A DNA stretch of 25,992 nucleotides from a virus (Duplodnaviria > Heunggongvirae > Uroviricota > Caudoviricetes), in IMG/VR virus record IMGVR_UViG_2563366804_000005. One strand, written 5' to 3'. Shown here in pieces: positions 23,101-25,992 of this stretch (its first letter is position 1; every line of letters begins with the position of its first letter). The position numbers are program-made.

Positions 23101-25992
23101 AAGGGCAGAAGCGTTACTGTCTGAAATGCAGGGAATAGCCGATAGTTTTCCCGGTTTGCGCTTTGAGAACTTTGACGACATCGTGAGTCGTTGCACTACT
23201 GCAATGTTAAAACTGGAACAACCCGAGGTTGTTGATACATCAATATCTTTAAAAATAAAAGAAAATATCGATTTTAATTATGTCGGTGCAGTTAACGGAT
23301 ATTGCGATATTTCTGAACCAGAAAAGTATAAAGTCGAAATGTATGCTTATACAACCGGAGAGTATTTTAACGGCGACGCTAATTTGAATAGTGACGGAAC
23401 TTTCTATTTCAGACGTTGCTGGACGGGAGCAAAACAGTTTCGTCTTATTCGGATTGAGGATAATGCGTGGATCACAACGTTGGAGTTTCCACTGCTCATT
23501 CGTAGCTACTGGATGCCGGAGGACGCAGACCCCGAAGTGATCAGGGTGATGAAAGATCGGTGTTACACGTATGACCAGGCGCTGGCAGCACTGGCGTTGA
23601 TGGTTCAGCGACATGAGGCTGTAGAAAGATACGTTGCGGGCTTGTGTGCGCTTGTTGATGAAAACGGTGGAGTAAAGTTTTTTGTTAACAGGCTGTCTGC
23701 CATGTCACCGCGTACCTATTACCGCTTGGGCAATGCGGCATGGGTTTATTATGCTCTTGCTTTCTATCTGGAGAAGTATCCGGACGGTACTCAGACTGCG
23801 CGGGTCAGAGAAAAGCTATTGGCAGGCATTGCCTGGCTGGATACTTTTCTGGTGAGCACACCAGGCGACCTGCGTGAAGGGCTGTATAAAGGGGGGCAGG
23901 GGCGTTATGTGGACGGCAATTTTGATGAAACTTTCGTCGCCGAATGGTGCGCACTGGAGCATAACGTTGATATCTGGTTTTTGTTTGAACTGATGGGACG
24001 GCTGGGATTTGACGGTTTCAGTGAGCGGGCTGACAGGCTGGCAAAGAGCATCATCAGAGGTCTGTGGGTGGAAGATGAAGGCCGATTTCGACAGGGGGTT
24101 CATTCAACCCACTATGACAACGCAGCGGCGCTGGATCAGTCTCCCTGGGGCGGATTGTTTGTTGCCAATATTGATGCTGAGAAAGCGGCTAAGTGCCGAA
24201 AATATATGGGGCGTTTTTTATTTGGTACGAGGGAAACCACGGGTTACACACCGTACCACCCTGATTATGGTTATAGTGGTCACAGCCGTGGCGTGTGGGT
24301 GGAAGGAACGGCAGGTGTGGCACTTTTTGAGCGCAAGCTGGGTAATGAGCTGAATGCGGTGAATCTTGTGGCAGCAATGGCTCCACTTTTTAATGAGTAC
24401 GGTTATCGTGATTCTTGCGATGACCCGGCATACGATGTGCTGCCTTCCTGGTCATCAACAACAAACACTGCCTGGATCATTCTGGCTGTAAAGCCAGATA
24501 ATTTCTGGTTAGTGGATTCGCCAGAAATGGATGTAGGGACAATCCGCTATTGACTCTCTTGTTGTTTGATAAACCGACAAAAGGATAAATATCAGCGATC
24601 CATTCTGTGCTGTTTGATTGTGCGCTCCCCGCTCAGAATTGCGCGTCAATTAGCCTATAAAAAATCGCGAAGATACAATACGTACTTCATTGCGCTTGAA
24701 CACCCCAGGCATAATATCGCTGGATTGAAATGTTCGGACATGGCAAGCGTATGAATATGCCGTGGTGGGGCGTGCCTGCGAATCTGGCTGTTGGTTAATC
24801 GTGGGTGAAAAAGGTGAGCAGTATATGCAACGAAGGAGGAAACATCATTGCTGGCGGCATGGAAGGCATGCAGGGTGTTGCTGAACCGTGTTGATACATC
24901 AACTGTACCTGATATTGAGTGGCCTACGAACCCTGTCAGGGAGTAATCATTGGGATTATGCCGCAGCACGTCGTGCGCAAGAACGTGCTGCGGCTGGATG
25001 CTATTTTTTCCCTGAAGCGGAAAACATTACTACAGTACCTTTAATCTTGGTTTTAACATTCTCGAAATGCTCTGAGAGTATATGTGTTAAGCCTTCTTCG
25101 GAATCTTTTGTGTTTGAAAAGATGCCTTTTTGATTGTAAATGCGCATCAGTTTTTGACCGAAGCTATTGTGCACAACGCCGTCACCAAGAATTGTGGCTC
25201 CGTATAGAGTTCCATCGTCAGTTAAGGCCTGCGCCGCATTGCGTATTACACAGCTTTTTGTAGATATATTTCCAGGCAGGCAGTGAAGAAGGTAAAACAT
25301 GGAAATGGAATCAAATTGACCATGTAATGCCGCGGGATAAGGTTCAAAAACATCATGGCTAATTTTATGTTTAATTTTTGATTCCCCAGCCCTTGTCGAT
25401 GCCGCGTTCAGGCTAGCTTCGTTCAAATCCATTAAAGATATCAGACTACTCTCAGGTACGTGAGTAAGGTAAAACCCAGTTCCAACACCAATATCCAGAT
25501 GGTTGTTACCTAAATGTTCCAGAAAGTGTGGAAGAAGGTGTTCCTTTGTAGGACATCCCCATGCAAGCCGATTTGATACTCCCAAAACCCACCAGTCATA
25601 AAGCTTTAGGGTAAGTGGTGTGTAAATTTTAGCCCCATCATCTGTGTTTTTTTTCATTAATTTCACCATGTTATAGTTTTATTTGTGAATTAAATCAATT
25701 GTGGCGATGAATTACAAGGGGTTAAATGCTGCCGCAGCATAGCGATATTGAAATAGCCTGGTATGCTTCGATACAGCAGGAGCCGAATGGCTGGAAGACC
25801 GTCACCACACAGTTCTACATCCAGGAATTCAGTGAGCATATTGCGCCACTTCAGGATGCTGTAGATCTGGAGATCGCAACGGAGGAAGAAAACTCGTTGC
25901 TGGAAGCCTGGAAGAAGTATCGGGTGTTGCTGAACCGTGTTGATACATCAACCGCACCTGATATTGAGTGGCCGACTTCACCTGCAGAGTAA

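Follow-up and report, generated by a model that had tools for sequence, protein, structure and literature searches.

A right-end tfa-ybcY-tfaX module of the DLP12 type in a decayed lambda-like prophage

The genes considered here occupy the last 1.2 kb of a 25,992-nucleotide (nt) stretch of Caudoviricetes DNA (IMG/VR record IMGVR_UViG_2563366804_000005), and the whole of that stretch is referred to below as the window. In order, this region contains a 3' fragment of a lambda-type tail fiber assembly gene (tfa copy 1), a hairpin, a methyltransferase open reading frame (ORF) on the minus strand, a 56-nt spacer, and an 88-codon ORF that includes a second tfa segment (copy 2). The two copies share direct repeats, at positions 24827 to 24927 and 25876 to 25976, which align without gaps over 101 nt at 83% identity, with a spacing of 1049 nt and about 31 consecutive identical bases within the alignment. 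The pair was found by a repeat search and recovered again by a scan of the whole window, where it was one of only two long direct repeats. When copy 1 was compared with the entire window by blastn, copy 2 was matched with an E value of 5e-26, and all other matches had E values of 0.04 or higher. Both copies match the Pfam family Caudo_TAP (PF02413, the lambda Tfa family), copy 1 over profile positions 95 to 130 (E = 8e-14) and the terminal ORF over positions 75 to 131 (E = 3.5e-26). The alignment at the DNA level confirms the recurrence of a Tfa C terminus that was reported in a first-pass annotation of the same sequence. A full-length Tfa protein has about 190 amino acids, including the N-terminal region, and its gene has a start codon and directly follows a cognate stf. 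Neither copy has these features, and neither sits after a lambda-type stf. Both pieces are best read as traces left by recombination, and neither as a functional chaperone gene.

Copy 1 (24827 to 24946, plus strand) consists of the last 39 codons and the stop codon of a lambda-type tail fiber assembly gene. The first-pass annotation had placed its left boundary at 24836, but the Tfa homology begins nine bases earlier. It had also reported that the copy lacks a start codon; there is indeed no ATG, with in-frame stop codons just upstream and a TTG at 24848 as the sole in-frame start. The copy is a pseudogene, labeled "tail fiber assembly protein, incomplete, missing N-terminus" by the Prokaryotic Genome Annotation Pipeline (PGAP). 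It carries the non-conservative changes EAWKKY to AAWKAC in common with phage ev243, which would be consistent with pseudogene drift in the stump that the two share.

Between the two copies lies a ybcY-type class I S-adenosylmethionine (SAM)-dependent methyltransferase gene (25001 to 25669, minus strand, 222 codons), an intact cargo gene. It had been described earlier as AT-rich and opposite in orientation to the tfa copies, and both statements hold, the GC content being about 0.37 to 0.45. The product matches Pfam class I SAM domains (Methyltransf_12, Methyltransf_23, Methyltransf_25, and Methyltransf_11) and phrog_2132 (E = 8e-156), which has no function label in PHROGs. The true start is probably the second ATG, at 25657, giving a predicted protein of 218 amino acids, because homologs are typically of that length and the alignment to phrog_2132 begins at residue 5. 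The gene was found in 3836 of 5426 complete Escherichia coli genomes, at 95 to 100% identity and in up to four copies per genome, and the arrangement methyltransferase-tfaX-potB occurs in 821 genomes. It differs from the ev243 gene by seven synonymous and two non-synonymous codons. Strain APEC E956 has, at the DLP12 site (argU), a minimal remnant consisting of int', a tfa pseudogene, an intact methyltransferase, and ompT, without tfaX, a pattern suggesting that selection retains the methyltransferase and ompT.

The first-pass annotation had left it between DNA and a small molecule as the substrate, and here sequence and predicted structure point to a small molecule or lipid and away from DNA. 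The translation was inspected directly for the motifs of DNA methyltransferases, (D/N/S)PP(Y/F/W) for N6/N4 enzymes and PCQ and ENV for C5 enzymes; it contains no PP dipeptide, and so no motif of the DPPY/NPPY type, no PCQ, and no ENV. Among proteins of solved structure, the closest by sequence are UbiG and juvenile-hormone acid methyltransferase (JHAMT), with E values of about 1e-3. A confident AlphaFold model (predicted local distance difference test score [pLDDT], 91.5) has as its best structural match a bacterial phosphatidylethanolamine N-methyltransferase (8ys9; E = 6e-12; template modeling [TM] score, 0.61 to 0.65). The top 50 PDB neighbors listed are all small-molecule, lipid, or natural-product methyltransferases, among them 8ys9, JHAMT, PfPMT, SgvM, and NodS. 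In Enterobacter and Yersinia, homologs with 56 to 65% identity stand alone on the chromosome, away from prophages, and their genomic context contains no operon partner and no restriction or DNA-related partner. Because DNA methyltransferase motifs are missing, the structural neighbors listed do not act on DNA, and the homologs stand alone, we conclude that the modeled protein is not a DNA methyltransferase and that it resembles the small-molecule and lipid methyltransferases. Matches to NCBIfam (CpaM, RquA, and PmtA) were all below threshold, so no specific function was assigned from them, and a marginal PADLOC match suggestive of defense (mad2, E = 0.004) was disregarded. A search of the literature on ybcY and tfaX found tables from systematic evolution of ligands by exponential enrichment (SELEX) and mentions of context, and no functional study.

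The methyltransferase gene is separated from the terminal ORF by a divergent spacer of 56 nt (25670 to 25725). Read on the minus strand, the spacer contains TTGATT (25698 to 25693), 17 nt, and TATAAC (25675 to 25670), and these hexamers are identical to those of the ybcY promoter in E. coli K-12, TTGATT-17-TATAAC (PMC3946193). The K-12 ybcY/tfaX spacer has genomic SELEX sites for the RpoD holoenzyme, one of which is assigned to tfaX, and is bound by H-NS (Shimada et al. 2014, PMC3946193). The methyltransferase is probably transcribed independently.

The terminal ORF (25726 to 25992, plus strand), which ends exactly at the window end, encodes a chimeric TfaX-like protein of 88 amino acids. The Tfa match seen here in the first pass stands, but the ORF is Tfa-like only in part: the Tfa homology is a fragment of 58 codons that starts at 25819, and the first 31 or so codons are not Tfa. 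Codons 1 to 31 (25726 to 25818) are of the phrog_3893 type, with a match over residues 3 to 37 (E = 4e-7), and codons 32 to 88 (25819 to 25992) are Tfa copy 2. The first 35 or so residues also match a complete 79-amino-acid gene product of Klebsiella phage Kp4882-3, with 51% identity over 37 amino acids. Because its N terminus matches this separate gene and phrog_3893, TfaX is taken to be a fusion of the 5' end of a small gene with the last 58 codons of tfa. The small gene is oriented divergently from the methyltransferase gene. In the Kp4882-3 locus (L011, 3004 to 3571), the 79-amino-acid gene overlaps the start of a 130-amino-acid ORF at the prophage end. The fused product matches phrog_2341 from end to end (residues 1 to 88 of 88; E = 2e-59), a family with no function label in PHROGs, and PGAP annotates only 25819 to 25992, as a tfa pseudogene.

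Copy 2 is mosaic. Its right-hand breakpoints vary by lineage, lying at 25755, at 25950, or at 25973 to 25976, or with homology running on into potB. Within it, the stretch from 25837 to 25950 (plus strand) is 11% diverged from the tfaX of ev243 and PhiR26_1, against about 1% for the remainder of the cassette (13 of 114 nt differ in this stretch, versus 10 of 836 nt in methyltransferase and spacer; Fisher p = 2e-7). An alignment with the AR_0006 prophage is likewise a patchwork, in which 25837 to 25950 resembles canonical full-length tfa alleles and the 3' end and flank are of the potB type. As read from these alignments, the tract is a gene-conversion patch. The TfaX differences from its relatives, 9 or 10 synonymous and 3 non-synonymous, would be mostly synonymous because the tract was imported by gene conversion from tfa alleles.

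The same segment is matched by the Rfam family RF02111 (IS009), at 25749 to 25952, with 129.2 bits against a gathering threshold of 117. The match at copy 1, over 24806 to 24903, scores 47 bits, below threshold. The RF02111 consensus corresponds to the 3' third of a lambda-type tfa gene, and few of its positions are paired. Since the model consensus is tfa coding sequence, the match tells us that the segment derives from tfa and does not speak for an RNA gene, and IS009 matches in E. coli genomes probably do nothing more than mark tfa genes and fragments.

The whole arrangement is familiar from the K-12 prophage DLP12. The parallel with tfaD-ybcY-tfaX that had been drawn in the first pass proved exact, since 24827 to 25972 is collinear with K-12 positions 581978 to 583121, covering the 3' part of tfaD, ybcY, and tfaX (b0561 to b0563), with the same gene order and orientation and 95.5% identity over 1146 nt. 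DLP12 also shares the hairpin after tfa, the divergent ybcY/tfaX spacer with its promoter hexamers, and the TfaX N terminus. The differences are in the state of the parts and in their surroundings. The methyltransferase is intact here, whereas K-12 ybcY is a frameshifted pseudogene; the upstream tfa is down to 39 codons here and has 187 codons in tfaD; and TfaX has 88 amino acids with a complete Tfa C terminus here, whereas the K-12 gene is cut short by a stop at codon 62. Behind the module come the right attachment site (attR) and potB, in a prophage located at potB/potC, but in K-12 appY-ompT comes next, in a prophage at argU. Given the collinear homology and the location at the tail fiber end of a lambdoid prophage, the region is an already known DLP12-type tfa-ybcY-tfaX module that differs only in the decay state of its parts and in its attachment site.

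The order tfa, minus-strand methyltransferase, and tfa' is also present in complete lambdoid phages, namely, ev243, 2G7b, and PhiR49_1 (Nesevirus-like) and PhiR26_1, PhiR29, and PhiR30; of these, ev243, 2G7b, PhiR26_1, PhiR29, and PhiR30 are inducible or isolated phages. With ev243, the window has 24679 to 25950 in common at 96.5% identity, including a gp25-like gene, the 39-codon Tfa remnant down to its decay mutations, the methyltransferase, and the 5' part of tfaX. PhiR26_1 represents the version with full stf and tfa. Phages of the ev243 and PhiR26_1 types have complete genomes, whereas the prophage in the window is without most structural genes. In those phages the second copy breaks off after NRVDTS and is followed by an alpha/beta-hydrolase and the ompT region.

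E. coli chromosomes with 99.7 to 100% identity to the final 3 kb of the window, referred to here as the matching genomes, show what lies beyond the window end: about 230 nt of attR, and then potB, potA, and pepT. At the opposite prophage end, xis and int are followed by potC. With potB beyond the window end and int and potC at the other end, the module therefore occupies the far right end of a lambdoid prophage between potB and potC. This prophage is decayed, with truncated terminase, portal, ClpP, gpU, and tape-measure genes. At about 23080, a large internal deletion has joined a tape-measure remnant, which PGAP marks as "missing C-terminus," to the C-terminal three quarters of a tail fiber. 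Strain F9792 has the same right end behind an intact M-L-K-I-J-lom series and a tail fiber N-terminal domain.

That fiber, a side tail fiber protein (23081 to 24553, plus strand), matches phrog_13714, "tail fiber protein," at E = 1e-268, with residues 19 to 490 on profile positions 159 to 631 of 631. Behind it lies the remnant of a small membrane-protein gene (24679 to 24805, plus strand), frameshifted and similar to gp25 of ev243. It was recognized by blastn, which gave 92% identity to ev243 for 24679 to 24772 and 96.5% from 24741 on, with an indel between, and by translation in two frames, both of which match ev243 gp25 (...YRWIEMFGHGKR.NMPWWG... in one and ...WLLVNRG, followed by a stop codon, in the other). 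A gp25-type gene comes after this type of tail fiber. The phages ev243, PhiR49_2, and Tritos all have a fiber, a gene for about 92 amino acids, the "gp25" gene for a membrane protein of about 97 amino acids, and then the 39-codon Tfa fragment. In these three phages the left junction of copy 1 is the same base for base (...TTAATCGTGGGTGAAAAAGGTGAGC.GTATA/TGCAACG..., the slash marking the junction), and the junction is present also in phages without the methyltransferase. The AR_0006 prophage, which has the same potB site and right end, carries a full stf and a 194-amino-acid tfa before methyltransferase-tfaX-potB. Because the junction is common to ev243, PhiR49_2, and Tritos and because AR_0006 keeps full stf and tfa, copy 1 is the stump of a tail fiber module swap, one that occurred in viable phages before the present prophage decayed.

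The hairpin (24960 to 24994), found by the repeat search, lies directly downstream of tfa copy 1 and forms the left edge of the cargo slot. It has perfect 12-bp arms and an 11-nt loop, folds as RNA at -32.3 kcal/mol (z = -2.8), and is conserved together with the tfa 3' end in an alignment that includes lambda, DLP12, PhiR26_1, PhiR49_2, and Ayreon. A terminator scan did not score it as a canonical intrinsic terminator. It may end or stabilize the convergent transcripts. Homology with PhiR49_2, in which dinI is next, extends as far as 25000, and the methyltransferase stop codon starts at the following base (25001). Homology with lambda runs to 24993, where ea47 is next, and in Tritos pinR comes after the equivalent Tfa end. 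Since dinI, ea47, pinR, or the methyltransferase can follow the same tfa end, the slot just after tfa has interchangeable contents. A cargo insertion, as had been suggested in the first pass, is borne out by these related phages, which carry other genes behind the same tfa 3' end and hairpin. The opposite case that the first pass had allowed for, an intact stf-tfa pair downstream with the methyltransferase as an ordinary host gene, does not apply, the methyltransferase being phage cargo and the repeat real.

A clean empty site was sought among the related phages and none was found, PhiR49_2, lambda, and Tritos carrying alternative cargo. Ayreon was considered as an empty site and rejected: it keeps 25000 to 25036 and 25696 to 25812 and is without 25037 to 25695, and with both gene ends kept it has an internal deletion of the cargo. 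An imperfect inverted repeat at 24986 to 24999 and 25726 to 25739 (14 nt, 86% complementary) was rejected as cassette ends and treated as chance; it overlaps a hairpin arm and lies off the homology breakpoints (25000 and 25755 to 25976).

A moron, in definitions of the Hendrix/Juhala type, is an extra gene between conserved modules, with a distinct composition and its own transcription. Some related phages have the methyltransferase between the conserved flanks and others do not. It is probably independently transcribed, and its GC content of 0.37 to 0.45 over 25000 to 25700 compares with about 0.50 to 0.52 in the upstream Tfa copy. It is in this respect like other morons and like the extra, compositionally distinct genes in the cargo slot behind the tail fiber of lambdoid phages, such as ea47 in the lambda b region, and in the exchangeable cargo or effector loci of E. 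coli prophages. Unlike typical morons, which are bracketed by unique DNA, it has a homologous tfa 3' remnant on either side.

We consider it likely that the region represents the accessory module from the right-hand end of a decayed lambda-like prophage, with a moron methyltransferase between tfa recombination footprints, and that it was made by recombination between phages. The methyltransferase would be a self-contained moron, transcribed against the late operon, in the slot right after the tfa stop codon and hairpin. To its left, a glucosidase-like fiber with two small genes would have replaced stf and most of tfa, with a crossover about 39 codons before the tfa stop. To its right, the 5' end of a small gene would have been fused to the last 58 tfa codons, and the fusion would later have exchanged sequence with other tfa alleles. 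The tfa 3' segment would have served as a joint for homologous recombination, at which tail fiber modules to the left and cargo to the right were reassorted among co-resident lambdoid prophages. The methyltransferase, presumably acting on a small molecule or lipid, may have been kept because of a benefit to the lysogen.

Several points weigh against this account. The order of events, including which lineage was donor and which was recipient, is drawn from a dozen loci rather than from a phylogeny. A generic sigma-70 promoter scan of the region found nothing and no canonical terminator was found either; the K-12 hexamers place the start of transcription only a few bases before the second ATG; and there is no T run beside the hairpin, so a terminator role for it is only putative. 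In addition, the synonymous bias in TfaX could mean selection on TfaX itself, not import from functional tfa alleles.

A further-reaching proposal, which we put forward tentatively and consider unlikely, is that the tfa-derived arms make the cassette portable by homologous recombination. A second possibility, advanced with the same reserve, is that the methyltransferase, whose closest structural match is a bacterial phosphatidylethanolamine N-methyltransferase, has a conversion function and acts on a lipid of the lysogen's envelope or on one of its metabolites. As for portability, two crossovers inside any tfa of the lambda type would bring in the cassette and restore the upstream tfa, and the 3' part of TfaX would then carry the recipient allele. 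The expected pattern, a TfaX with a recipient-type 3' allele, matches copy 2 in the window. If true, portability could explain how the cassette came to be in about 70% of E. coli genomes, where it occupies several attachment sites and follows tail fibers of different kinds.

Direct repeats flanking an inserted gene are also the trace expected if the methyltransferase had inserted into an intact tfa and duplicated its 3' end in situ, with later divergence of the copies, and in DLP12 and PhiR26_1 the upstream copy is in fact a full-length tfa. The degree of divergence speaks against this origin, which has in our judgment only a small probability. The copies differ by 17%, yet the methyltransferase between them differs by only about 1.3% between lineages, and copy 2 is nearer to the tfa alleles of other phages (90 to 93%) than to copy 1. 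Because the copies are only 83% identical to each other and copy 2 is 90 to 93% identical to tfa alleles elsewhere, we do not regard them as an in situ duplication. Moreover, copy 2 starts at the phrog_3893-type fusion and has different downstream DNA without the tfa hairpin, and neither a transposase nor a short target-site duplication was found.

About equally improbable, to our minds, is that the downstream element is functional itself, either as a TfaX mini-chaperone or regulator or as an IS009 small RNA. The end-to-end match to phrog_2341, the above-threshold RF02111 score, and the RpoD SELEX site of K-12 tfaX would all fit a functional element, as would an AAGGGG Shine-Dalgarno-like motif 4 nt before the ATG and the bias of the substitutions toward synonymous changes. 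That bias, however, is confined to the tract seemingly imported from functional tfa alleles, and the RF02111 consensus reads as lambda tfa coding sequence, mostly unpaired, so that the match is driven by sequence. The element is moreover broken or missing in several relatives: K-12 tfaX stops at codon 62, the Tfa C terminus is lost in ev243 and PhiR26_1, the homologous stretch of Ayreon has stop codons, and the whole element is absent from APEC E956. PGAP, in addition, calls the region a pseudogene. A literature search on the function of the Tfa domain yielded nothing directly usable.

The first-pass annotation had also raised the scar of an invertible tail fiber switch of the Pin/Gin/Cin type, in which the tfa pieces would be the remains of two sets of stf C terminus and tfa, the invertase having been lost. 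The Gin/Cin/Pin segments (Mu G, P1 C, and e14 P) do have duplicated tfa-family genes near the end of the tail fiber operon, and tfa genes adjoin pin genes in other lambdoid elements, as in Tritos, where pinR follows on the opposite strand right after a gp25-like gene and Tfa fragment. In those segments, however, the tfa genes face each other, stf C-terminal halves and crossover sites go with them, and an invertase gene lies alongside; here none of these features is found. The copies in the window are direct and no inverted Tfa copy was found in it; copy 2 is fused to an unrelated small gene instead of an stf C-terminal fragment; no invertase is annotated in the matching prophage or downstream, where attR and potB follow, the integrase being the sole recombinase annotated; and no site in the window matches, with three or fewer mismatches, the 26-bp hix/gix/cix crossover consensus, which we take to be TTNTCNNAAACCNNGGTTTNNGANAA. 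The same arrangement also exists in viable phages without pin. The module fails every defining test of a Gin/Pin-type invertible segment, and an invertase scar is hardly credible. The Tritos locus itself (L010, 3400 to 4511) has two tail fiber genes upstream of the gp25-like gene, Tfa fragment, and pinR, and an invertible fiber segment may exist, or may formerly have existed, in Tritos.

Some other features of this prophage were observed in passing. The 490-amino-acid fiber ORF has no Pfam domain, and PGAP names it "glucosidase family protein" in one strain; it could contain a glycan-degrading receptor-binding domain. Its first 300 nt or so are strongly AT-rich (GC content, 0.34 to 0.40), suggesting a module junction. 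Between about 18096 and 23138, the terminase large subunit, portal, ClpP protease, gpU, and tape-measure genes form a chain of in-line truncations and fusions. Other strains have different deletions of the same prophage (for example, with the portal joined at 23313), and the methyltransferase end is kept in all of them. Further upstream, 9600 to 12267 and 12293 to 14960 are a tandem duplication, identical base for base, with a unit of 2693 bp that comprises part of a DUF968 gene, rusA, the Q antiterminator, and a cluster of four tRNAs (11176 to 11485 and 13869 to 14178). The close strain MB06101 has a single copy of the unit, and an IS21 insertion there is absent from the window; the duplication is either very recent or an assembly artifact. 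The phage-borne tRNA cluster reads Ile/Met-Lys-Thr-Gly. Its tRNA with the anticodon CAT (11176 to 11251 and 13869 to 13944) is called tRNA-Met by ARAGORN, and PGAP calls the MB06101 counterpart tRNA-Ile, presumably lysidine modified.

As found, the region adds one more example of a module that annotation already records in K-12 and thousands of genomes, and in itself it matters little. It does provide a worked example of conserved tfa 3' ends as presumed joints for the reassortment of tail fiber modules and cargo among lambdoid prophages. Rfam IS009 matches, for their part, probably mark tfa-derived sequence. The ybcY-type methyltransferase is among the most widespread of E. coli prophage cargo genes, and it is intact in most strains.

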